Shown in pieces: positions 2 through 30,300 of a stretch of DNA of 64,000 nucleotides. The notes beneath the pieces were generated by a model. The model worked only from the letters and a program-made list of their open reading frames with translations. It searched no databases and was not told where the DNA came from. This DNA comes from Lytechinus pictus (lineage: Eukaryota). The stretch lies in the NCBI RefSeq assembly GCF_037042905.1, contig NC_087251.1:15998001-16062000 (forward strand), read 5' to 3'. The translations under genes and the position numbers were made by a program. How positions within the stretch are numbered: the stretch's first letter is position 1; each line of letters opens with the position of its first letter.

Positions 2-1460
2 AAAAATGTCACCCGTCACAATGGTGTAAGCTTTCAAGCTATTGAAAATGTAACGATACAATCTTATATCAATGTCTTTACTACAACTATACCCGCTAAT
101 GACGTAATATCTGCCTCTCGCATCTCTAATGGTCGCATAGCTGTGTATCTAAAATCAAAAGAAGCTGTTATCAATGCTGTACAAAAAGGCCTTGAGTATG
201 AGGGGGCCTTTCTTGAACTAACCCCCCTTGTACGGCCCACTACTCGAGTCATTTTATCTAATGTATACCCAGAACTACCGAATTCTGTCTTGACTGAAAA
301 TCTAGCACCTTTTTGCAAAGTTGTGTCCGACTGCAAACCAATACCTCTATCGATTTAAAGACAAACGTCTAAACCATATTATGAGTTTTAGAAGGCACGT
401 TCAAGTGTTAGTGAAACCTAACACAACACTTCCAGATAACATTAATTTCGTGTTTTCAGGTATGAACTATCGTGTTTTTATTTCAACTGAGTCAGTCAGA
501 TGTTTTAACTGTGGTGAATTTGGTCATATTTCCCGCAATTGTAAGAAACCTCAAACAAGCACAAATACTAATCAGTCAAAGACAAACGCTGCCCCAGTTT
601 CAAATGACACGAGAGTGCGCCAGCGCGGATCCTCCCCGCCCCTCACTACGGTTTCGGACCCCATGCCACCATCACCTCCCCCCTTGGCGGCAACTACAAT
701 GCCCCCACCTGTACCCACCTCCTCTGATTTCCCTAGTTTACCACCTCGTGATTGTGGGCCCCTTTCTACCTCAGCCACCCCCTCGCGCATCAGGAAGCCT
801 CAATCCTCCCCACTGCACATACCTCTGACATCACCTGCTCAGCCGTCCAGCAATTCAACTACCACGCCCATAGTCGTGTCCTCCAAGTCCCCTCCCCCCA
901 AATCTATTTCTGCGTGCCCTTCGCCTGTGTGGAAAACTCCCCCATCACCTGTCCGAACTTTCTCTGAAGTTGTTTCAAAACGTAAGCAACTAACACCCGA
1001 ATCAAACGAAAACAATACTACTCTTACTACACTGAAGGCCCCCTCTCCTCTTCGGAAAGTGGCCAGGAAAGCTCCCTCCTCCCAAACCGAAACCGTAGAC
1101 TCTCCAACCTTGACGCAAGTCCTTGACTCCCAAACCCCCAATATCCCTCCTACCCCATCCTCCACAGTTGGAGATTCATCTACCGACACTGACCCCATGA
1201 CTTGGGAAGATGCCCAAACGGATGAAGATGTCCCGAAGGAAGATGCACTCCCATTGACTCAAGGCCCCCTCTCCCAAGGCCAAATTGTGAAATTTCTGTC
1301 AAACGTAAAAGGGCGGAAAAAGCCTGCCCAGATTGCACGGAAATATACATCAAATATTCCAGGGCTAGTTAAACAATTAAAGCCCCTGAAAAACAGCCCC
1401 CTAGTAAAACGTAACATGCAGCAGAGGATATACAAATTGATCAGCACTCTGGAGAGCTAA
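2..1460 (+). CDS. Tx1-like ORF1 (nucleic-acid-binding, zinc knuckle); N-terminus truncated, frameshift near 350
   Basis: Frame 2..358 is open (KNVTRHNGVS...SASRISNGRIAVYL...PLVRPTTRVILSNVYP...KPIPL). It continues in the 321..1460 frame (FKDKRLNHIMSFRRHVQV...CFNCGEFGHISRNC = CX2CX4HX4C), followed by a Pro/Ser/Thr-rich region and a basic C-terminus. Confidence 0.85.
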
Positions 1461-1514
1461 TTCCTTTTTACCTTCTCTCCATTCATTACGTACGCTCAAG
1501 TTGCTATAGCCATA

Positions 1515-4500
1515 ATGGCACTGTCAATGCTGACCCTCAACACCGGAGGATGCTCCTCCCAAACTCAAAATGCCTCCTTCCGAGTTTATGTTGAGCAAAT
1601 TGCATGCAACCCGCTCGTTGTATTTTTACAGGAAACTTACCACCTTAAAGATAGCAATCCTTGCTGGAGCAACTGGTCGCATAAACCTTTTTGCTCACCC
1701 GGTATTACTCGAGGGTCAGGAGTGACAACTTTGGTTAATAATTCTCAAGTCGATATTTTATCTACTTGTATTGTTTTTGATGGCTATATATTGTATAACA
1801 AGCTCTCCCATAATAACTGTATTTATCATGTATACAACACACTCATTCCTCAATCTGATGAAATGGCAATTAAAGCTATTAATGCCCTTAATTGTCATAT
1901 ATCCACCTGTTGCGAAGATAATATTGTGATTGTGGGTGATTTTAATTGCACTGAAAATCCTGCGATTGATCGTTTGTGCACGCTCACAGAACGCAGACCT
2001 AAACTTGTTACGGCTTTGCAAAATGTTCTGAATAAATCTTCTCTTTGTGATGCATGGCGTTTTCTAAATCCAAATGAAAAGAAATTCACCTGGCAACGGC
2101 ACAATCCAGCCAGTGCACAGGGCTTTTCAAAGTCTAGATTAGATCGATTTTATGTACCATCGTGTCTAGTTTCTTCTATTCATAAGTGTGAAATTATACC
2201 TAGTTCCTTATCTGACCACTCTGCAGTTTCTCTAACCTTGAAATTTCCAATACGAGCTAAAGGAAAAAGTGCATATTGGATTTTTAATAACACTCTTTTG
2301 GAAGACGAAAGTTACATTGATATTATTCGTCTTTTTTGGTCAGATTGGCAAAAAGAAAAAAATGACTTCCCGAATCTTGCATCTTGGTGGGATTTCGGCA
2401 AGGTTCATATAAAATCAATTACTCAAATGTATAGCAAAAAAATAGTACAAAGGAAAAGGCAAGCTCTAATAGAAATTAACAAAGAGATTGATAAACTTCA
2501 GAGCGCAAAAGAATCTAGCCAACAAGATAAATATACTCTCGACGAGCATAGAAATGCATTAAACTCGTTACTGAAAAATGAAGCACGCGGAGCTCTTGTG
2601 AGGTCTCGCTTTAAATACACAAATGAAACAGACTCATGCTCCAATTTTTTCTTCAACTTAGAAAAAAAGAATTCCTTATCAAAAAGTATATCCCGCATTC
2701 GGCTCGCTTCGGGACGTATTTCGGAGAACCCTTCTGAGATAAAAAATCATGTTCGGGAATTTTATGAATCTCTTTACACTCGAAAGCCAACTGACAAGAG
2801 CGCCATCAATAGTTTACTTGTAAATATCAAGACGCTTGATCCGTCCTTATCAAAGGACCTTGAGAATCCAATATCTGTAGAAGAACTTGATAATGCTGTC
2901 AAGCAGCTAGGCAAAAATAAGTCTCCTGGTATCGATGGACTTACCTCTGAATTTTATCATGTCTTTTGGCCCATGCTCAAAGATGATTTTCTCGAAGTTC
3001 TTACCTCCTCTCTTGAATCTGGATTTTTACCATACTCTTTTAGGAGGGCGGTCATTACTTTACTCCCCAAAAAAGGAGACCTCGCTGATATTTCAAATTG
3101 GCGTCCCGTCTCCCTCCTCAACACAGACTATAAAATTTTTGCTAGGCTGCTTGCCAGTAGGCTAAAATCATGCATTGACCATGTTATTGGAAGAGACCAA
3201 AGTTATTGTATCCCCGGTCGTTCTATTTATGACAACATTAATCTCATTAGAGATATTTTGTTCTATGCAAACACTGATAATATTTCTTTGGCTGTATTGA
3301 ACTTGGACCAGAAAAAGGCATTTGATAATGTAGATCATGTTTATTTATTCAATGTTATGAAACGCATGGGCTTTGGAAGTCATTTTATATCTTATATACA
3401 AATTCTGTATGAAGGGGCTGAAAGCCTTATTAAAGTGTGTGGATCCCTGACAGCTCCCTTCCCCTTTGAGAAAGGAATACGACAGGGATGCCCTCTATCA
3501 GGGTTGCTATATACTCTCGCCATTGAGCCTCTCCTGAACTCACTAAGAGAGAACGTGTCAAATCATGCATTAAATATCCCTGCTATTAACAAACGTTGTG
3601 TAGTATCTGCATATGCAGACGATGTATCGATATTTGTTACAGCCGATGCTGGCTTTGAATTAGTTGAACAAACTTACAATATGTTTAGTCTGGCCTCTGC
3701 TGCATGTTTAAATACAAAAAAATCACAAGGCCTTTGGGTCGGCCGTTGGAAAGGGCGGAATGATAAACCCCTCAACTTTTCTTGGAATAGTGAAGGTCTC
3801 CCTTTTTTAGGAGTTCATTTAGGGAACACCTTTAATTATTCTAAACAAAACTGGATTAAATGTAAAGAAAGACTTAATAAGACTTTCATTTCGTGGTCTC
3901 GTTTATCGAACTCACTCTCATTTAAAGGCAAGGTATTGATTGCAAACCAGCTCGCTGCATCAAAAATATTTCATGTTCTTGCAGTTCTTTCTCCTCCTGA
4001 AAATGTATTAAACGAACTTCAGAATTTAATTGTGAATTTTATCTGGTCAAATAAGCGGCACTGGTTAAAGAAAGAAGTGTTGTATGAAAAACCTGACGAA
4101 GGAGGGCTGGGGCTAGCTTGTCTCCAAGCTCGTGTTCTAACTTACAGATTTTCGATTATTCAACGGTTTCTTTCGTTAAATTCTCATCCAGTAAATGACT
4201 TTATGGCTCATTTTCTGAGACAGTATTGTAAATTAGGATTTGATTACCATTTGTTCTTTACAAGAATTGATCCTAAGTTTTACACAAGTCTTCCAGTTTA
4301 CTATAGTGAAGTTCTGCGAGCTTGGTTGACATCTGGAGCTCGAATTGTGACACAATCCCTCTCTTTCAGCCATGCAATTAACATGCCCTTAAGTAGTTTT
4401 CATATTATTGATGCAATTGATGTTGATAATTTTTTTCCGACGCGCCTGATGGCATGCGGAGTGAAACTAGTTCGCCATTTGATAAACCACTCAACCGGTC

Positions 4501-5372
4501 TTTGGATTGAGAGTAGCTGTCTCCAAAAGAACTTTCCAAGAGGACTTCGACAACCATCATCGCGTCTCATCGAACGTGAAACATTACTCATTCGAACTGC
4601 ACTCTCTAAAGTTTTTCCTACATATTTTAATGACTCAGGCTGTCAACACGAATACTCTGATTTATTGTCTGTTCCAGTAACTCCGATCAACTTCACTCTG
4701 GCTTCTTCCGAAAATGGACTTACTGCTTCTTCTAAAGCCATCTACACAATCTACAGGAAAGAACTAGATAACACGACAATCTCATCAAGCTCACATTGGC
4801 ATGATACTGGATTTCTCGATCCATCTACAAAAGTGAACTGGCTATCTATCTATCAACTACCAACACCTAAAAAAGAGGCTGATATTCAATACAAACTCCT
4901 TCACAATATTTTACCGTCGCTCACTGTACTCCATCATCTTAATACAGACATTCCTTCTTTTTGCGGATGGTGCGGAGAAGCAGGAACCATTCAACATCTG
5001 TTCATCGAATGTAAAGGAATTCAACCCCCTCTCAATCTTCTTCATAGACTGTTGAACAATCTCCTCCCCTCTCTCAAACTTAATTTTGACCTGTACTGGG
5101 CACTCATTCCGCATGCCAGAGGGCGTGACAGAAAGATTATCCGCCTTGCTAATTTCCTTATTATTAGTTTAAAAAGTACAATTTATTTTATGTACCGTAC
5201 CTCAAATTTCACCGATCCACTTATAATTTGGTTACATCGTCTCAAAAACAGAATACTCTATGAATTTACTTATTACAAATTATGTTCTAATATTGATGCT
5301 TTTTCACGTAAATGGTGTATGAATAGATTACTTTTTACAATTAACGAGGGCAGCATTGCATGGCTCATTTAA
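1515..5372 (+). CDS. Retrotransposon ORF2: AP-like endonuclease, reverse transcriptase, C-terminal zinc finger (1285 aa, intact)
   Basis: EN motifs FLQET, GDFNC, SRLDRFY, SDHSAV; RT motifs SPGIDG, WRPVSLLNTDYKI, LDQKKAFDNVDH, GIRQGCPLSG, YADD; C-terminal CGWCGEAGTIQHLFIEC. Confidence 0.97.
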   Translation: MALSMLTLNTGGCSSQTQNASFRVYVEQIACNPLVVFLQETYHLKDSNPCWSNWSHKPFCSPGITRGSGVTTLVNNSQVDILSTCIVFDGYILYNKLSHNNCIYHVYNTLIPQSDEMAIKAINALNCHISTCCEDNIVIVGDFNCTENPAIDRLCTLTERRPKLVTALQNVLNKSSLCDAWRFLNPNEKKFTWQRHNPASAQGFSKSRLDRFYVPSCLVSSIHKCEIIPSSLSDHSAVSLTLKFPIRAKGKSAYWIFNNTLLEDESYIDIIRLFWSDWQKEKNDFPNLASWWDFGKVHIKSITQMYSKKIVQRKRQALIEINKEIDKLQSAKESSQQDKYTLDEHRNALNSLLKNEARGALVRSRFKYTNETDSCSNFFFNLEKKNSLSKSISRIRLASGRISENPSEIKNHVREFYESLYTRKPTDKSAINSLLVNIKTLDPSLSKDLENPISVEELDNAVKQLGKNKSPGIDGLTSEFYHVFWPMLKDDFLEVLTSSLESGFLPYSFRRAVITLLPKKGDLADISNWRPVSLLNTDYKIFARLLASRLKSCIDHVIGRDQSYCIPGRSIYDNINLIRDILFYANTDNISLAVLNLDQKKAFDNVDHVYLFNVMKRMGFGSHFISYIQILYEGAESLIKVCGSLTAPFPFEKGIRQGCPLSGLLYTLAIEPLLNSLRENVSNHALNIPAINKRCVVSAYADDVSIFVTADAGFELVEQTYNMFSLASAACLNTKKSQGLWVGRWKGRNDKPLNFSWNSEGLPFLGVHLGNTFNYSKQNWIKCKERLNKTFISWSRLSNSLSFKGKVLIANQLAASKIFHVLAVLSPPENVLNELQNLIVNFIWSNKRHWLKKEVLYEKPDEGGLGLACLQARVLTYRFSIIQRFLSLNSHPVNDFMAHFLRQYCKLGFDYHLFFTRIDPKFYTSLPVYYSEVLRAWLTSGARIVTQSLSFSHAINMPLSSFHIIDAIDVDNFFPTRLMACGVKLVRHLINHSTGLWIESSCLQKNFPRGLRQPSSRLIERETLLIRTALSKVFPTYFNDSGCQHEYSDLLSVPVTPINFTLASSENGLTASSKAIYTIYRKELDNTTISSSSHWHDTGFLDPSTKVNWLSIYQLPTPKKEADIQYKLLHNILPSLTVLHHLNTDIPSFCGWCGEAGTIQHLFIECKGIQPPLNLLHRLLNNLLPSLKLNFDLYWALIPHARGRDRKIIRLANFLIISLKSTIYFMYRTSNFTDPLIIWLHRLKNRILYEFTYYKLCSNIDAFSRKWCMNRLLFTINEGSIAWLI

Positions 5373-5510
5373 ACATTTGATTTTATAACTCTGTGCTTGT
5401 AATCAACCTGATCTCATTTGAATGTTTATGTCAAACTATTCTTTTATTATATACCTGACTTTTGTGATTATAATTTGTAAATAAAGTTTTCATTTGAAAA
5501 GTCAAAAAAG

Positions 5511-6286
<776 letters not shown>

Positions 6287-8912: not shown

Positions 8913-10088
8913 TACAAATCTTGGGCATTTCAGGGGTGAATTTGCCCCACACCAATTTAGATATCTTAACTTATATCTCGGGTAAAAATTTTGATTAAGT
9001 ATCTGTGGATTTTGTACAATGGTGCTTGAAAGTCTGACTACTCTGGCAGCTCTTTTTTTCAACCTTACTGAGATCCCTATGCCCCCCGAGAGTGACCCCG
9101 AAGGCACCATGACTTTTTTTAATGAGGCAAATAAAGGGCCTTACAAAATATGTCTAGATTATAAATTACAAATATTGAACACATCATCTCTGATAAAGCT
9201 AATGTATGTAATTTAGTTGATTCTGAGTCTGATAAACAACAAAAAAGTAATAAAAGTCATCTATATTCATCGTAATCATGATTCATGATTACATTGGATT
9301 CATGATAGTTTAAATAAATTATAAAAAAAGTGATTTTTTTTTTTGTTACAGTACTTAACCTAATGCATCATAGACTTGACACAGTCAGAGTTTCAAACTT
9401 TCAGGTCAACTGAAAGCTTTGGTCTCTGTTTCATCAGTTCTCTGTTGATCTGAAATGTCTTGCTTCACTACACCTCCTTACGTTGATTGAAGATGTTATT
9501 GCACTCTGAGAGGGGACCAATGCTCCAAATTAATCATTGATCATTGATAATATTTTCCATCAAAATGTACTGTAGGTTTTTTAATGATGAAAGTTTTGAA
9601 AATAATCAGAATGTAGCAGTCATCACCACCTTGGAGCAATTTCATTAAGAATCAATCTAATGTAATAAAATAACTACCCTGATTTTTAGGGGAATATTAG
9701 GCCTACTTCGAACTTATGGGCTCACACAGTGTGTGAGATGGCTAGCCATCTTTATAGGAGGAGAAACAAAAATTGAAAAATAAAATGTTTAAAATCTAAA
9801 AAAAAACCAGACAGATTTCAGCTGTTTAGGTTTCAGGGAGTTGGTAGTGCTGCTACCATTAGTCTGAAGTCTGGCATATTTTCCTCTTTCATATGAGAGA
9901 TAATTCATTGGATTTTATGAAAGGTTAGAAATTTTTCTATCTTGCTTAGGACATCTTCTCCATTTACAGTGTTTTAATGTATAGTGTACAAATAATTTCT
10001 GTATACACTGGTTATGAAATTGCTATTGTTTTCATTTCCATAGATCACTGAACATGTTTTTTCTTTCTTCGCTGATTTATTATTATAG

Positions 10089-10648
10089 GACCTGGATGCA
10101 TGTCGGATGAAATTGGAGAAGATTCTATGTTAGATTATTACAAACATGAGCTAGAAAGAACTAGAGCTAATATGAGGCAAACTGAAACTAAATTAAAAAC
10201 AATCACTCAAACCTTGAACAAGCAATATGCAAAAGCTGCCAGTACTGTGAATGAGATTCTAGGAATTGAGAGCCCTCGGGTACCGAGCATCTTTGCTGTC
10301 ACACCAACGTACACCAGACCAGTGCAGAAGGCAGAACTAGTGCGGTTGAGCCAGACCTTCCTCAATATTATAAATTTTCATTGGATAGTTGTGGAGGATT
10401 CTGAGAGAAAGACCAACCTTGTGTCTAAATTCTTGGAAAACTCTGGCCTAGTGTACACCCACCTGAATGTAAAAACAACAGATGAGTACAAGTTAAAGGA
10501 GAATGAAGCTTCTTGGAGGAAACCTAGGGGAGTTGATCAAAGGAACCTTGCAATTGACTGGATTCTAGAAAATGTTCCTCAAGATGAAGAAGGGATAGTC
10601 TACTTCGCAGATGATGACAACACGTACAGCTTGCAGATTTTTGAAGAG
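10089..10648 (+). CDS. B3GAT3: B3GAT3-like coding exon 2 (stem + GT43 N-terminal catalytic domain)
   Basis: Acceptor ...tattatag|GA; motifs IFAVTPTYTRPVQKAELVRLSQT, HWIVVEDS, PRGVDQRN, GIVYFADDDNTYSLQIFEE (DxD); donor GAG|GTAGGT, phase 0. Confidence 0.95.
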
Positions 10649-10673
10649 GTAGGTCAGAGAAATGTTAGATCTG

Positions 10674-10810
10674 GGGCTTGTTTCATAGAAACGCATGATG
10701 GTCACGTTGCAATTAAGATAACTACATTGTACCATGGTAACAGGGCTCAAAATGAAATTCAAGGTTTCCATTCAATGGCAAAGTTGAAATTGTCTTTATG
10801 AAATGGGCCC
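10674..10810. mobile_element. Harbinger-like MITE with CTG TSD, in intron 2
   Basis: CTG|GGGCTTGTTTCATAGA ... CTTTATGAAATGGGCCC|CTG. Confidence 0.6.
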
Positions 10811-11198
10811 CTGATAAAACAGGTAGTACATTCCTATATTATGTTTTATCAAGTGGTGATTACTGTTATAAGAATAATCCTTGAATCCGTTTTGATGAAT
10901 AATTGATAAATGGACAGAATATAAACACTAGATTTGTAGAAATCTCATGACATCATTTTTTTTAGGTGAAGGAGTATAAGCTCACTGTTTGAATGAAAAG
11001 GCAGTTAGTTATAGAAAATAATCTTTGGTAAGATAAGCTATTGAAATGATAAACAGCAAGATATAGTGCTCTATTTTTCAATGAAGATGATGCAGGTATA
11101 GCTAAAAGATGAAATTCTTTTTTTTTTCTTAATAAGTATGTCTCCATTGCAAGAAACCTCTATTTTACCATGATACATATTTTTCATGTTCACTGCAG

Positions 11199-11495
11199 AT
11201 GAGAACAACTCAGAGAGTCAGTGTGTGGCCTGTGGGACTTGTTGGTGCGCTTCGCTTTGAGCGACCTATTTTAAACGACGCAGGAAAGGTAACCTCTTGG
11301 TACACCATGTGGGCCCCTGACAGACCATTCGGAATGGACATGGCTGGATTTGCAGTGAGTCTCAAGCTCTTCAGGCAGCAACCACATGCTAGGTTCGACA
11401 TCACCTCAATGAGGGGCTATGTGGAGTCTTCTCTTCTTGTACAGCTGGGAGTCAGAAAGGAAGACTTGGAACCTCTAGCAGAAATGTGTACAAAG
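11199..11495 (+). CDS. B3GAT3: B3GAT3-like coding exon 3
   Basis: Acceptor cactgcag|ATG; MRTTQRVSVWPVGLVG...RPFGMDMAGFAV...GYVESSLL...LEPLAEMCTK; donor AAG|GTAATC, phase 0. Confidence 0.96.
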
Positions 11496-12596
11496 GTAAT
11501 CAAATAAAGATAAATAAATACAAATCAGCAATGTCAACACATTTGTTAATATTGCCAATTTATATTTCTTTATCTTCATTTCAAATTGTAATTGTTACAT
11601 TAAAAATGGAATGATAGAAATTTTGGGGTCATCTCATTTGACATTGTAAGAAAAAAAGAGGGTTTTAAATTGTGCAGACAAGAAACCTGTTATGGGCTAT
11701 TCCACGGTTACTCACATTACATTTGGAGACACCTTGACTCATACTTGGAGCTGTAAATCCATTATTATTGATAGGAACTAAACATCTCTTTATCACAACA
11801 TAGTACGCAGTCTGACTATCCTTTGTATAAAAACAAAACTTGGGAAATTTCATTATGCTCCTGGCTACTCATGTTACATGATTTGGACATGCATAAAATG
11901 AAAAATGGACATAAGTGAAAAGTGTCCTCATGCAAGGCTTTTATGAAAGTTGATCATATCCATTTCAAAGAAGTATATTAGGGAGACAAATTTGAATATA
12001 ATTAAAAAAATAAAGAACACATGGTTTTTACAAGGGGTGCAGATAAAGTGGTTACTCATGTTACGGTTCAGATGGGCTATATGTACAAAGACACATTGAG
12101 CTCATGTCCACCAACCTATGGAATTGCCCTTATGATAATATTGATGAAAGTAAGGTCATTAATTCAAGTTATTATTTGTATTTTAATCCAAATCAGCAGC
12201 TCAAAGGAAAAGGGTCATAACAATTGTTTGACAGTTATTCTTAGCTGAGGGAATATATTGCCTGTTGCCATATCATGGTCAAAAGTCAAAAGAATACAAT
12301 AAAATTCTCTGATCAAATATACTGGTGCTATTGAATAAGCTTTGACTTCAACGCAGCTCTAGTGAACATCGTTTATATGTCTCAAATGACTGACAGGCCA
12401 TTATGTCTCCCAAAACAATTCATGCAGTCCATCCAGTCAAAAGAATGCAATCAAATTCTTTGATAAAATTGAATTAGCTTTGACTTCAATACAATATTAT
12501 GCACAAGACTACCGGTAATCATAGATACAGTTAGCATTAGAGACACTGTGGATACATTTAATTCATACTTTCCATGATACAATCAGTAGCCTAGAT

Positions 12597-12778
12597 TACC
12601 TGGTGGGTGTTTCATAAAGCTGTTCGTATGTTAAGAGCAACTTTAAGAACAACTGGTGATCCTTTCTTGTGGTAAATGATATTCATTGGTGCTTAATTAT
12701 TGCGTAAGAAAGGTTCACCAGTCGTTTCTTAAAGTCGCTCTTAACTTACGAACAGCTTTATGAAACAGCCCCCAGGTA
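12597..12778. mobile_element. Palindromic MITE, in intron 3 (termini related to 10674-10810)
   Basis: TACCTGG..TGTTTCATAAAGCTGTTCGTA.GTTAAGAGC..CACCA arm mirrored by ..GCTCTTAACTTACGAACAGCTTTATGAAACA..CCAGGTA; ~70-bp arms. Confidence 0.85.
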
Positions 12779-13486
12779 TTTATCAAAATTTGATATATTA
12801 AGATATGATTCATGAGTTCTGCTCAGCATCTTTGACAGTCCCTCCCCCCCCCACATCTCCCACTGTTTTTACTGTGCTGAAATGACAGGATAAGAATTAA
12901 AAAGATGATTTATAGGATTCCTTCTGAATGACTTCTTCCTCAGTGCCTAAAGTAGCAGTCTTTACATCAGTTCAACCTGGTTGATATCCTTCACAGAGCA
13001 AAATAACCATGGATATTGTAGCTTCATGAATAAGCTTACATAAACTAAAGAAAAATAGATGCAAATAGTATATGATATTATCATCATCATCTATAAAAAT
13101 TAGAGTGTTCTAGCGATGCATTAAAAACATGTATTTTGCATCAATTGCCTGTGCAGTATCAGAGCATATCCCTAAAAAGGACCGAAATCCAATGAATATC
13201 CCATAGACTCCTGTACAACATTTGCTATTGAATGTGTAAGCTTATTCAACAGTCTAGTGCTAATGCGTGAAATATACAACGCGTGCAACAATGAAAGCAA
13301 TGCGATGCGCAGCATAGAGCACAACTACGCTCCATGACGTCATAATGAACTATATGCAAGTTGCATGTTGACGACTAAAATTGATCCTATGAAGTGATAA
13401 TGGCATAATGTGGTAAGTGATATGACTTGTTAAAGTAAATTTCTCCCTCTTTTTTTTTGGGGGGGGGGGTGGGATAGATGATAATA

Positions 13487-13600
13487 ATTATATTGGATGG
13501 CGGTATTTCATGAAATACCAGAAATATTCCACTCGTTAGGGCCAATATTCCAAACTCTTGGAATATTTCTTGTATTCCATTCTAAGGCATCCAATATAAT
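13487..13600. repeat. Imperfect inverted repeat (probable transposon end) near the exon 4 acceptor
   Basis: ATTATATTGGATG/CATCCAATATAAT outer pair and GAAATATTCCA/TGGAATATTTC inner pair. Confidence 0.6.
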
Positions 13601-13663
13601 ATAATTATTCTTCACTTTAATTAATGATAATGAAAATAAGATTTCTGTTATGCTTTCTTCCAG

Positions 13664-13762
13664 GTACTGGTCTGGCACACAAGAACTGAAAAACCCAAGT
13701 GGAAACAAGAGGACAAACTGATTGCACTCGGTAAACCATCAGATCCTAGAATAGAAGTATAA
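13664..13762 (+). CDS. B3GAT3: B3GAT3-like last coding exon
   Basis: Acceptor ctttcttccag|; [32 protein letters not shown], the GT43 VWHTRTEKP motif and SDPxIEV C-terminus. Joined CDS 88+560+297+99=1044 nt (347 aa). Confidence 0.95.
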
Positions 13763-14481
13763 TCATGAGGACGAATCATTCAAAAGATCACTCCTCAAAG
13801 CGCAGGGATAAGAAAAATTAAACTAATGATGTGCAATTTTTTACAGGACATTTTGTCTTTTATAAACCTATCATGTTACTATAGACCACATGCCTTAAAA
13901 GAGTCAATGTTAACAGGACTCAAATTAAAAGAAACAAACAACACATAGAGCGATAGTGGCATATGAAAGGTTCAGTATTAAACACAGCCCCTTTTCATCT
14001 CATCTCTTCCATCAATCGAATAACCTACATGCATCCTTTGCCACATACCTCCAACAAATATTCCTTATAATGACGGTATAGTGGATCCAAAGTAATGGGT
14101 GATAATTACATCCTCTATTATTTCTGTTGTTCATTCAGCTTCTTGGTTCCCCCTCCTATACTGTATACCCAGGGGGTTGGGCTTGTTTGATCCACCTTGC
14201 ATGGGAATATTCACAGGTTGTGACCCTCGATCAGTATGGTATAAGAATGTTTGATTCATTAGGCCGGTTGTAAGATAGTCATGACTTTTCAAACAACTGG
14301 AATATGTTTGGGTGCTCAATCAATTCTCAATCATTTAGATTCCCAAAAGCTTAATATGAAATCCAATCTCTCTACATTAAAATATCCTGTCATTAACTCA
14401 TTAGCATGTGAATTCAATGTTTATTATTTTGTCAAAGTTTGATTTGGGATATAAATTCTAACTTTGTTGAAACAACATAGA

Positions 14482-23902: not shown

Positions 23903-26900
23903 CACAGAGATAAGAAACTCTATTTGTATAATCGGCTGGGTTATCCCCACTATCTTTTCGTATTTTTTCATTATCATAATTCTTGAATTTCATGAATATA
24001 AAAAGTTGTTTTATTTCGTTCGTTTCGTGGACATTGTAAAATTTGCATCACTTATTGCAACCTTGATTATATCAGAACGTGAGACTTGAAATAAGTTAAT
24101 AATGATATCATATACATTGAAAGAGAGAGACGTTGTCATGTTTGTATGTCATGATTATGCATTATTTGCTTAGCATACAACAGATTGTAAAAAAATATGT
24201 TAAGTTGGTAATCTGAGGGGAATATGATATACCCCTCCTTAAAATGAGAATGATAAATTCGAATTCTTTTCTGAAACATTCAGTAGATATCAGCGCCATT
24301 TTGTATTGTCTTAAAATAAATTTTCATTTATGTAAGCGACTGAAATTCATGAACAAAACTATCATCATTATAACAAATTGTTTCTCTCTGTTAATAGCAT
24401 GTATGATACTATCAGTTAATAATCATTTCACTTTTTTATTGTTATTTTTCTAATCGGAAAGCATCAAAACATGTTGCATGAATTATCATTTCCATTTTGT
24501 ATATAATTAGGCCAACATTCATTGTAACTTCGGTAATGTCAAAGGTTTTGGAACAAACATTCGTGCAAAATTATAAACAATGTCTATTCTTGTACCCTGG
24601 ATTTGATAAGTTTAGTCTACTTCTTTGGGTTTCCAAAGAACAGCGCAGATGCCTGCTGGGTAAAAAGCGAAATCTACCTGTTGAAATAGGCCATGATAAA
24701 ACGTGATTTGTTAGTCGATACTATCGGTCTTACTTCATGGTGATAGATCCATACTAATTTGTCTCGTCTTAATCTCCTTTTCTTCTCAAAACAAACACAA
24801 TATGTTCCGCGGCATATAACCATCCATCATCTGATTTACAGTCATCTCGGCTGTTAGGAGGAAGAAGAAAACGGGAGAGGGGGAAAAAGTCGGAATGAAA
24901 TCTAAAACCGCACGGCACGAGCGTCAATATTGGGTGGAGATCTAGCGAACGGGGCAATACATTGCACTTAAATGTAAAAAGCGAAGCAGAAATAGAAGGA
25001 TTTCGATTTTCCTCGTAAAACCACACACGCGCCAAAACGATTTTTGAGGTCCATCTGCCCCCGAAATATTAAGGGGCGGCTTAAATGCCGCGAGCCGACT
25101 GAAATGATATGCGAGTATTATTGCCCTAAAGAGTTAAATGCTTGTAACAAAATGTTTCATCGTTTGCTTCTACTCAAGCTCAACAAATGAAATAAGTAAT
25201 AAAACATTTTTTAAGGAAAGAAACGAACCATAGACTGTGATCTGTGAAGCAGTAGCAGCTAGGAAGCAATTCTCTTCTGCATTATTCATTTGGGAATACA
25301 GACATATAGCATTTAAAACATTGAAACAATGTAATTTTGTTGGTCTATATCACTATCTAACATTTATTTCATGGGACCTCAAATAAGTAAAGTAATATTC
25401 TGTAAATATTGCTGACTCTTACTTTTTTTAATTTGTTTTCAGTTTCTCTCAGTTCAGTCTCGTTTCAATTTCATATTAGTATATGCCAAACATTTTTTTA
25501 AGATACAACATAATTAAACAACAATGATATACACCAAGCACAATGGTTTTTGCCAATATGGCTGTATAGAATGACATATAAATATTTATATCAATGCGTG
25601 TATATTTTGTTTATTTCATTTCAAAGAGAAAACAATAAAACAAATAACCTATCACCAAAACTATCAGAACAGTCTACGATCATATGGATACCATGATTAG
25701 AATGCCCACACCATCCCCGTTCTCCTCCTTTTTAAGTCTCCTTATTTTTGTTATCTATTTTTAGCATTAATTTTGATACCCATATAGGTTAACCATGATG
25801 AGAGGGCAGCTTGGCAAAGGACTGTGCAGTCTTTTCACATTCCTGAATTTATCAGGATGGCCAATTCATACACACTTCTGAAAACATAATGATAATCATT
25901 CTCGAATATAATAACCTAACATTATGTGAAGTTGCAGATGTATAATCCTTTTCAACTGAAGTTGGTGTCCTTAATCTTCGTCAGAATAAAAATAATGGTG
26001 TGAAGGGATTTCTTTAGGAATGCCCTGTTTATCTCTTAAGCATGCTTTCTGCTTGAGTACGGTACCCTCTCTGCACTTTAGGAAGCTAAATGAAATCAAT
26101 AATGAATACGCTTTCAAGATTGTTTCTTGTTTTCGAAATTGACTTTTCCTAATCGCTTCATTAATTCTTGATCGATACTAGATTATCGTGATTTTCTGCA
26201 TGATTTAATCATCAATATCCGCACAAAAAATAGAGGCCCAAAAAGGGGCATGACGAAGTACCTGTCGCCTATTTTAGAGAAAAAAAACCTCTTAGTTTTT
26301 AATGATCAATTCTTTCTGGCCAGAATAAGCTGTCATGTATAAGATATACTCGCAAAAGTTATGTAGTCCACATAAGTATAAGAAACCCAAATAAAATACG
26401 TTAACTGGCATTAATTACAAAATTGAGGCTAGATAAGGCGATGTAGCAAAATAGCTCCAAAATGATAATAATCTATTTTTTCCTTATCATTTTCCCAAAG
26501 AAATAGAATGAACAATCACATGTCTAAATATTAAACAATGTCATATGAAAATAGATAACGTTAATAAAAAATAATTTTTCACAAAATGCCTTTAATTGTT
26601 GGTACATTTTTTCCCATTTCTTTATAGACTGCTGCGTATCAACTTAGTATAAAAATAAAATTGTGGTTTCCTGATGAAAAAGACTTATGAGGAATATCAC
26701 ACGTTTAATTAACATTAAGGGAAATAAACAAAAACTGTGCCTTATCTTCTACATCAAACCATTTTACATGTGTAAACCTAGCACTGAACAAAATCAATAT
26801 TTTTAATGTTTCTGTTGTGTTTTATAACCTAAAATGTTGCATCATAGAAAGCCATGTTTGAAAAAAAAATGTCCATTATGTATTTAATGATTGAATCATT

Positions 26901-27233
26901 ATCAAACGGTTCAAATCAAACTTTTTGCACGTTATTACAAGTTTCTGTATTCCTTTCATTTGCTGTTTACAAAACAACTAAAATTCAAGTTAAATTTGCT
27001 TATTCCTGCATTTTAATATTTATGGTTTTATCTAACAGGTTCTACTCTACACTTACTTTTATCATCCTCTGAGTAATGTTTTGCTTGATCTTTATTTGCA
27101 TATCCATGAGACTTTTATCTTTTCGAATTTATTATTTGCTTCATTTAAAAAAATTATTCTTGCTACATCATTACTTTCATGAAAACAAAATAATCATAAT
27201 CATAATTAAAAACATATAACACAATATATTATT

Positions 27234-27331
27234 AGAAAGTCAAAAAGGGGCCTAAGCTTTCGATCCTAGCAGAATCTTCGTCAGAGGCAAAATGACAAAC
27301 ATATAAAGTGGAACAACCATAATATAGACCA
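27234..27331 (-). mobile_element. 98-bp Penelope-like retroelement fragment with 13-bp TSD
   Basis: ACAATATATTATT at 27221-27233 and 27332-27344 flanks a segment containing a hammerhead ribozyme motif. Confidence 0.75.
27239..27296 (-). ncRNA. Minimal type I hammerhead ribozyme
   Basis: Minus strand: GUCA-UUUU-GCCU-CUGACGA-A-GAUUCU-GCU-AGGAUC-GAAA-GC-UU-AGGC-CCCUUUU-UGAC. Core CUGANGA/GAAA/UH, 6-bp stem II, stem I GCCU/AGGC extended by GUCA/UGAC, palindromic AAGCUU at stem III. Confidence 0.8.
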
Positions 27332-30300
27332 ACAATATATTATTGTCAGAAATGTATGCCTGTTCGTTAAATTGTTTGCTGATATCTGCTGCATGAATTC
27401 GGAAGTTGTTTACACGGTAAGGTATGTTGAATTCAATTTATGCAACTTTGTGTGCCAGCATAGTGTTTCACATACTGTAAAATCTAATTGAACAAAAAAT
27501 GCTTGCATTTTAAGTGCAGACCTACAATTAATATTGCTAATTTCGGTGCTAAAAGTAGGAGGCAAATCCTTTATATTTTTAAAGTATTCTTTGTCATGTT
27601 ATTTTTTTTTACGCGAGATGAAAGTTGGTCCTTAACGTAAATAAACTTGTAAATACACTTCTGTAAAAACGAAGAGGCCAATTAAGATGTTTTGTTTTGC
27701 CATTAGCCCATTCCCAGGTACCCGTCGGACGCGGTAGAGGGATTTCTATAAGAATTGCTTGACCTAAACACTCCACCTCTTATAAGATTCGTCAACCCCA
27801 ACACAAGAAATTGCATATATCATGTATATGGAATTTATTTTGATGGTGAAATTCATACAAATCCTTCCAAAATGTCCAACAAATTTGAATCGACGAAAGC
27901 GTTCATTAATAAATTCGTTTAAGAAATAAGTAAAAGACAATAAAGACTTCGATTGTGGAGCAAGCATGTCGTCGATTATTGCACTGTGATTTCTACAGCT
28001 CGCAGTCGATTAGCAACGCCTCTCTACCCTCCTGACGACTCGCTCGATCATGCACACACTGATTCACGGCTCCCTCTCCCTCTCTTTTCTATTGCTACGT
28101 CTGATGTTCTAAACACTTGGCCAAGAGACTAGGGAGAAACAGCCAAGCTAAACTCCATCCAACACGCTGGCTGATCATCAGCTTCAGATATGCGGAAGAT
28201 TTGATGAGTGAATAAAAGTCCTTTCTCATGAGACTCCCACTTTCTCTCTCTCTCTCTCTCTCTCTCTCCCTCCCTCCTTCGTTCTCTTACTCTCACTCTC
28301 CGAATAAGTTTATCTTACCTACTTTATCTACTCCTACCCACTTACACCTCAAGAATAAACTCTCAAGAAAGAGAAGAGATAGCACTTGTCATCCAATTTT
28401 CTCTCAGGTGTACAAAGTGACATAAATGCCGATATCGTCCCAGTATTTCCCTTTCCCTATTCTTTTACGAGCCAAGCCTTTTGGTTTTGTACGCCACATT
28501 TAGTTTTATCGGATCTAAGTGACAAACTTTTCACGGATCGCTTTGTTTGAAAATGCGATATTAGAGTGATACTTTTACCTTTTTTGCAAGCTTGTCAATA
28601 AAAAAAAAGAAGTTTGCAAGGGATTAACAAACCACTGTACACCCTAAAACAGCCTACAGTATTTTTTGTTCTAGCAGAATTAAAACAAAATCAGGGCACG
28701 CACTTTTAATCTAAAGTGCAACAAAAACACCTGTTGTAAGCATGTGTAAGTGCCTCTACCTATATGCGTGAGTTGAAAGGGGTATAAAGTGATAGAGACT
28801 GGACTTGTAAAAGTATTGTATAGAAGAGAAGGACAATAGCAATGGATGAAAATAATGATGAGAAGGGAAAGAGTGAAAGCTAGAAGGAGATAAGGGGGAG
28901 ATGTTGAGAAATTGGGGGCAGAAAGAGAGAGGGGCGGACTTCAAGAAAGCAGAAGGACGAGAAGGTATACAGGGAGTGTTCGAATTTCATAGTTAAGGGA
29001 GGGTATAGAGGTATGTGTGAGTGTGTGTCTTGTGAGCGTGGGTGTAAGAGAGATATAGTTAGAGTAAGAGAGAGTGGGGAAAGAGAGAGAGTGAGGGGGA
29101 AGAGAAATAGGAGAGAGGTGTCGACAATGCCTTGATTTCTAGCCTAAATAGTTCGAATTCCGTCTCTGAATTCACCGTCATCAGTAGATTTTAAGGTATT
29201 TCAAGATTATTGTAGGTACTGTAATAACATTTGCGTAATATGGAAGATTTATATATTTTATGGGTTTTATTCTATAAATATTTTTTTTTAATTGTTTCTG
29301 ATTAAGAGTTTTTAGAATTATTTGATTGATCACTCACTTTACTATACATCACCTTCAAACTCTTTTTTCGTAAAGATTTTGTGCTTACCCGAGTCTTGTT
29401 TCGATTAGGGACCAAATATGTTTAGGAACTACTTACTTGCAAAAAATATACTTCGACAAAGGGATGCAAGAATTATGATAAGTTTTAATATGCATGTGAA
29501 GGATTATCGCAAACAAGAGACGCTGAAAACAAAAGCAAAACTTTGTCAAATGTGTTATTCGTCACGCTACCTGAGGTAAAAACATCCATGAAATTACCAG
29601 TTGCTTTTAAAGGCATACGATTTTTATTATTCCTTATCATATGAAATATGAACGCGGATATAAAAATATTAAATGACGAAAGAACTAATAAAACGAGTTG
29701 AATCCTGATCAAAATACAAATTGGAGAAACATTAAAGCAAGGGAAATTAAAGTCAGGATGAAGTCGTTACTTATATGCCATTTCAGAATAGACCATCGTG
29801 TTTGCTTTGCTGATTAACGTCTTCATTAATCATTCCATCCTAGATTTTATCAGCACCAAGAAAGACAATATAAGGAGATTTTCAGCTAAATCAATACCGC
29901 CAGAGCGCTGCCTTCATCATTCATCTACCACCAATGATAATACTTCAACTATCAGTTCTTGGGACCCAGAATGCATAGGCGAGTATGTACGCGCAGACCA
30001 GACGGATAGGGAAAGATAGGAGTACTGTCTTTCATTAAATACAACTTGGCAATAAATTCACACGCACTACACACGCGCACACACGGTTCGCGATTTTCCT
30101 GGCTTTTAATTTGGAGTGTCGTTATACGGGGATAATATACGACTATCCTTTACTCTCTTTTCAATCGACTTCTCTCCTCTCCCTTCTACTTATTGTGAGA
30201 AGAGGGGATATTTATTTCCGACACCCAGTACTCTTGGTCAAAGATTAACCAAAGAGGCATCTGCTGCAGGTTGATCATGAACTAGGGCCAAGCTGGGATT

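Follow-up and report, generated by a model that had tools for sequence, protein, structure and literature searches.

A 98-bp insert in the genome of Lytechinus pictus is very probably what 5' truncation has left of a young autonomous Penelope-like element (PLE), namely its 3' end. It is flanked by a 13-bp target-site duplication and absent from another haplotype, and it carries a hammerhead core whose U at position 4 (U4) likely arose by chance, as a CpG transition from the C (C4) of its family. The insert lies in a 64,000-nucleotide stretch of contig NC_087251.1 (positions 15,998,001 to 16,062,000), here called the window. Coordinates refer to the first letter of the window unless a locus is named.

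Insertion site and empty allele

The insertion comprises three features.

27221..27233, no strand: target-site duplication, copy at the 3' end of the element, from the ACAATATATTATT repeat and the empty allele
27234..27331, minus strand: terminal 98 nt of a PLE, where its 955-nt 3' UTR ends; 97/98 identical to the full-length copy L032
27332..27344, no strand: target-site duplication, copy at the truncated 5' end; contigs of other samples begin aligning at 27332

The two copies of ACAATATATTATT, at 27221-27233 and 27332-27344, leave 98 bp between them. By itself this repeat is weak evidence of insertion, and 15 of 1,000 shuffles of the 2.5-kb AT-rich region yielded a 13-bp repeat by chance. 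Despite this weak statistic, a true insertion is settled because an empty allele exists. Contigs from four DNA runs (three samples) were aligned to window positions 26700-27700. In one of them, X3 record 17, letters 879-1324 align to 26704-27178 and letters 1373-1523 to 27338-27488, with 48 letters between the blocks versus 159 in the window. The shortfall of 111 letters equals the insert (98) plus one copy of the duplication (13); it is read from the record coordinates of this one spanning contig, as the alignment skips the AT-rich repeat at 27179-27218 and gives no joint. X1 and X4 each contributed two contigs whose alignment begins exactly at 27332. A preliminary description of the window had pointed out the direct repeat around the 98 bp and proposed a search for an empty allele; the repeat is confirmed by the window letters and by the allele of another sample, which lacks exactly 111 bases. 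The flanks of the contigs from other samples differ from the window by several percent, so these contigs represent other haplotypes or a close relative. The insertion in the window is recent and polymorphic.

The target site is nearly palindromic (ACAATA-TAT-TATTGT, 27332-27346). The long outer stem seen when the whole 124 nt are folded stems from this site and not from the element.

The parent Penelope-like family

A DNA search of the 812-Mb genome with the insert scored 40 copies of 1,535 candidates. The paralogues that the preliminary description had asked for are therefore present, and so is the link to an open reading frame (ORF) for reverse transcriptase (RT) and GIY-YIG endonuclease (EN). 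Twenty-nine other loci match the insert at 98-99% and extend from ~105 to >1,590 nt upstream, with ragged 5' ends. Position 27234 is the main fixed 3' end of the family and recurs in these 29 loci. The full-length copy, L032 (C11, minus strand), is an element of ~4.25 kb with hammerheads at both ends, arranged as a first hammerhead, a 5' UTR of ~600 nt, an open frame of 895 aa, a 3' UTR of 955 nt, and the second hammerhead. The insert differs from its last 98 nt only at core position 4.

The 895-aa frame is a single ORF in which RT (RVT_1, E 4e-8, above the cut-off) is followed by a C-terminal GIY-YIG match (E 3.5e-4; 21.2 bits, just below the Pfam cut-off of 22.6), with a C-x4-C-x2-C linker between them. 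A CX2-5CxxC linker between RT and EN is given for Neptune and Nematis (PMC8557442); L032 carries this motif, which the Neptune clade shares with Nematis. A PDB sequence search with the frame found no relative. The family also displays 5' truncation, inverted partners, and an optional 3' tail, as EN+ PLEs do. A further trait of EN+ PLEs is an intron retained in the 5' UTR; that of L032 holds a 150-nt tandem duplication (4412-4110, minus strand) whose pyrimidine tracts end in AG and resemble acceptors, so that a splice acceptor may have been duplicated.

The hammerhead of the window copy

The hammerhead elements of the insert all lie on the minus strand.

27239..27296: type I hammerhead of the minimal form, its stem I extended, with cleavage predicted at 27254/27253; fits the min-HHR consensus (PMC4209133, Fig. 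S3)
27296-27293 with 27242-27239: GUCA/UGAC extension of stem I
27288-27285 with 27253-27250: stem I
27284-27278: core CUGACGA, followed by an extra A at 27277, a 6-bp stem II, and GAAA
27283..27283: core position 4, where the family has C and the window copy U, likely through a CpG transition that followed insertion
27254..27259: palindrome AAGCUU, stem III as a dimer only

The core, extra A, stems, palindrome, and extension read as they had originally been described. In a fold of the 63-nt unit, all 14 proposed pairs had predicted probabilities of 0.80-1.0. A minimal-hammerhead descriptor matched the window once, at this site, and matched none of 200 shuffled versions. The window copy carries the core CUGANGA...GAAA...UH together with the traits of minimal type I hammerheads, namely an extra base at 9/10.1, a G10.1-C11.1 pair, and a palindromic stem III. 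The Rfam scan proposed in the preliminary description returned no covariance-model match between the window hammerhead and the Rfam hammerhead families, either at the gathering score or at E up to 10.

The family core carries C at position 4

Genome-wide, 1,236 exact 39-nt matches contained CCGACGA (C4) and 18 contained CUGACGA (U4); the control gave 0. Across four runs from three samples, C4 accounted for 98.6-99.4% of the contig depth. The weight initially placed on the complete core of the window copy is therefore misplaced: CUGACGA is a rare variant (18 versus 1,236) of a C4 family.

C4 and G5 form a CpG. Single changes at position 4 were to T in 19 cases, A in 3, and G in 1, and those at position 5 were to A in 14, C in 4, and T in 2. 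The two strand-symmetric CpG transitions do not differ in frequency (U4, 19; G5A, 14; p = 0.49), although by established hammerhead chemistry G5A destroys the motif, whereas U4 restores the consensus. Because U4 is about as frequent as G5A on the opposite strand, it is likely neutral CpG decay, and to judge from these counts the canonical U4 of the window copy is likely a chance transition from the family core. In each of the six inverted pairs with both arms over the site, a U4 arm is paired with a C4 partner. Against a purely neutral model, very short copies are enriched among U4 (12/18 versus 35/90, p = 0.04), an excess that it does not predict unless short copies are older. RT error could alternatively have produced U4. 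A selected, active U4 subfamily was considered and rejected, as U4 appears on several subfamily backgrounds and differs between the arms of one insertion. A perfect core in a single copy can thus be mutational noise.

Other minimal hammerheads with the same palindrome comprised 699 with U4 (family revertants included) versus 12 with C4 outside the family, the latter count excluding those with A at position 10.2. Since same-palindrome hammerheads elsewhere overwhelmingly carry U4, C4 is a derived trait of this family, all of which descriptors restricted to U4 would miss. GAAAGCUH also occurs in ~680 minimal hammerheads that belong to several other families, and many of these sit close together as back-to-back pairs. 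A literature search found no PLE family fixed for U4C; Lunse et al. 2017, outside that search, may already describe C4 variants.

Two further sets of C4 motifs were seen. Loci L150-L158 include two small, older-looking groups of C4 hammerheads with a CG palindrome (6 and 5 of 15 matches; control, 3). Two identical C4 hammerhead-like motifs stand in tandem 236 nt apart at L170/L171 (C2) and form a possible retrozyme-like pair.

5' ends and the proposed start of the family RNA

We sampled 90 C4 copies, in order, from the first 100 listed of the 1,236. Their 5' starts fell 1-9 nt before stem I in 35 copies, 10-60 nt before it in 13, and further upstream in 42; the lengths 179 and 326-330 are lower bounds, set by an indel in the reference and by the probe's end, and one insertion contributes two of the 90 rows, one for each arm. 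Duplications were scored in the shorter copies. A 60-nt tail is present in 31/90 copies, 30 of which end at one second site. AAT follows 25/57 untailed ends, pointing to an AT-rich target.

Across the genome, the G of the GUCA helix is the first base of 127 copies in which a base other than T precedes it. Among the 100 of these that were listed, that base is G in 74, A in 20, and C in 6; long copies have T at the corresponding position in 79/79. Long copies running into the 5' UTR (L032, L056, and L007) begin at the hammerhead edge too, and an Inr-like TCATTT lies at this boundary. Two positions of the window copy correspond to the putative start region.

27296..27296, minus strand: position matching the inferred capped RNA start of the family (first base of the stem I extension), where 5' ends pile up with an untemplated G
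27319..27326, minus strand: putative TATA-like TATATTAT, 30 nt upstream of that start

TATATTAT has one mismatch to the TATA consensus. Reverse transcription of a cap is reported to leave an extra 5' G (PMC4038843). From the untemplated G, the pile-up of 5' ends, and the TATA-like box we infer a capped RNA starting at the first base of the hammerhead. The sequence evidence suggests such a start for the family, and the extra G could instead come from RT addition bias or target microhomology. The literature search found no PLE with a capped start at its hammerhead. The window copy includes 35 nt upstream of the putative start, so its template was the hammerhead of the 3' UTR.

A pile-up of 5' ends at the cut site was sought and not found. 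In a census of exact 20-mers not preceded by T, only three places lacked U before the cut site, namely one mutant, one inverted partner, and one 20-nt solo insertion; at most two of them are true starts. Because such starts are nearly absent, the copied templates appear to have been mostly uncut. The scarcity of cut-site starts may still be compatible with cleavage, as cut RNAs may be degraded or poorly copied. The solo insertion, at ~1501-1520 of L088, starts at the predicted cut site and has a 10-bp duplication and five extra letters; no other single locus hints as clearly that a cut RNA was copied.

The proposed course of insertion is as follows. The family GIY-YIG endonuclease would nick an AT-rich target, and RT would begin on uncleaved RNA, always at one site that lies 16 nt downstream of stem I. 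In the window, RT would have copied the hammerhead of the 3' UTR and stopped after 98 nt, leaving a plain truncation. Internal RT starts and AT-rich nicks are described for the PAc element, for which cleavage was unneeded for insertion in vitro (PMC11167929). In the family at large, the hammerhead would likely serve as a structured RNA end, that is, as transcript start and RT landmark, with cleavage weak or late.

A wider proposal is tentative, and we rate it somewhat below even. The C4 family outnumbers all same-palindrome U4 families together (1,236 versus ~680) with a core that would be weakened by C4; its RNA would be capped from the first base of the hammerhead, internal RT initiation would have turned such RNAs into hundreds of capped, uncut, hammerhead-only cDNAs, and cleavage would be dispensable or disfavoured. 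If true, the hammerhead is a folded RNA end and RT landmark, and the genome supports the in vitro result for PAc.

The most serious competitor, which we regard as unlikely, is that the pile-up marks an RT stop where cDNA folds into the stem I hairpin, and that C4 does not keep the family hammerhead from cutting in vivo. It bears on the family mechanism only and not on the identity of the insert. The boundary is indeed the first base of the GUCA/UGAC helix. U4C is a natural viroid change that lowers activity in vitro and keeps infectivity (PMC3088659), and CYGANGA is in use as a natural hammerhead core (PMC13481778). Moreover, a subfamily whose 3' UTR has diverged by ~10% retains the 39-nt motif intact, albeit in a copy found via the motif, which biases the comparison. 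An RT stop is, however, at odds with the untemplated G, with the Inr-like motif and the TATA-like box at -30, and with the long copies that reach the 5' UTR and start at the same base. The genomic record of the family suggests that the copied RNAs were capped and uncut.

Function at the window site

The nearest recognised gene ends near 13,780; judged by its motifs, it is probably a beta-1,3-glucuronosyltransferase-like gene, with three exons at 10076-13780 (plus strand). Open frames of 384 and 1,303 aa at 306-5372 (plus strand) presumably belong to an intact LINE of L1/Tx1 type (endonuclease and RT), again judged by motifs. A (TTTC)n array follows these frames at ~5500-6250. No coding exon was recognised by eye within 13 kb of the insert; the inspection covered those above 40% GC among the 169 open frames at 11.6-64 kb. 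A long intron or a non-coding RNA may cross the site.

The preliminary description had proposed that the insert could cleave minus-strand transcripts. Most likely, however, this solo copy is inert, because stem III forms only with another hammerhead and the window holds no partner. In published work, monomers of minimal hammerheads failed to cut and their dimers were weak (PMC4209133); for PAc, the hammerhead required its protein (PMC11167929). It is highly improbable that the solo copy is an active ribozyme cutting host minus-strand transcripts at 27254/27253 by dimerising in trans with other family RNAs. Its canonical core and well-predicted stems I and II would favour such activity, and >1,200 family copies plus the ~680 other GAAAGCUH hammerheads are possible partners. 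In a rough energy model, however, two monomers (-26.2 kcal/mol) and a misfolded duplex (-34.0) both come out more stable than the swapped, active-like dimer (-17.7, extension helix omitted). The copy is also polymorphic and far from any recognised exon. Cleavage of minus-strand transcripts by the window copy would be unlikely, and the insert, one ordinary stub among >1,200, probably has no function.

Comparison with known systems

The preliminary description spoke of a recent, highly truncated PLE/retrozyme-like insertion. Its first part holds, given the paralogues, the RT/GIY-YIG parent, and the empty allele; its second is not supported, given an autonomous coding parent and the lack of tandem units in the loci read. 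Non-LTR retrozymes are defined by non-coding units of 150-450 bp that are repeated in tandem and all bear a hammerhead, and by circular RNA products. A non-autonomous unit of the retrozyme or SINE-like kind, mobilised in trans, is the least probable reading of the insert: ~39% of sampled copies are hammerhead-only stubs of ~56-64 nt (~120 nt with the tail), many with their own duplications, but internal RT start on the 5' hammerhead explains these, the insert matches the 3' end of a coding element colinearly, only one copy has the 98-nt length and no family-wide boundary exists there, no tandem 150-450-nt units occur in the loci read, and the window contains no second copy. The insert shares with these retrozymes a type I hammerhead, long duplications, and a link to PLE ends, and differs in having no tandem units, a minimal rather than canonical hammerhead, and direct descent as a fragment of a coding element (PMC7229834; bioRxiv 10.64898/2026.07.22.740005).

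The insert resembles the min-HHR of metazoan PLEs (Cervera and De la Pena 2014, PMC4209133), with which it shares a short stem I, a 6-bp stem II, the extra base before G10.1, a palindromic stem III, a U-rich 5' flank, and mostly solo, truncated copies. The rows of Fig. S3 of that paper that we compared carry U4, whereas the present family carries C4 and the window copy is its rare U4 variant.

As in EN+ PLEs with a linker zinc finger, of the Neptune/Nematis type (Craig et al. 2021, PMC8557442), RT precedes a C-terminal GIY-YIG with a CX4CxxC linker, and 5' truncation, inverted partners, an optional tail, and AT-rich targets recur. The present tail is 60 nt long rather than 30-40 nt, and the 5' repeat of L032 is the hammerhead alone; the likeness is one of motifs and architecture (PMC8557442).

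PAc, a Poseidon element of Anolis (Frangieh et al. 2024, PMC11167929), likewise has two fixed 3' ends bracketing the tail, an AT-rich target, and no ends at the cut site. In contrast, the present hammerhead lies ~600 nt upstream of the ORF, carries C4, and would mark a capped RNA start. The role of hammerheads in PLEs is still open (PMC8557442, PMC11167929). For such questions the family, young as it is, combines an autonomous copy that is still intact with a fixed variant of the core and natural revertants, so that natural C4/U4 pairs exist for comparison.

The insert is an object of a known kind, a truncated PLE end with a min-HHR. The fixed C4, the putative capped start at the hammerhead, the hammerhead-only stubs, and the 60-nt tail, for none of which the literature search found a paper, are modest additions at the level of the family.
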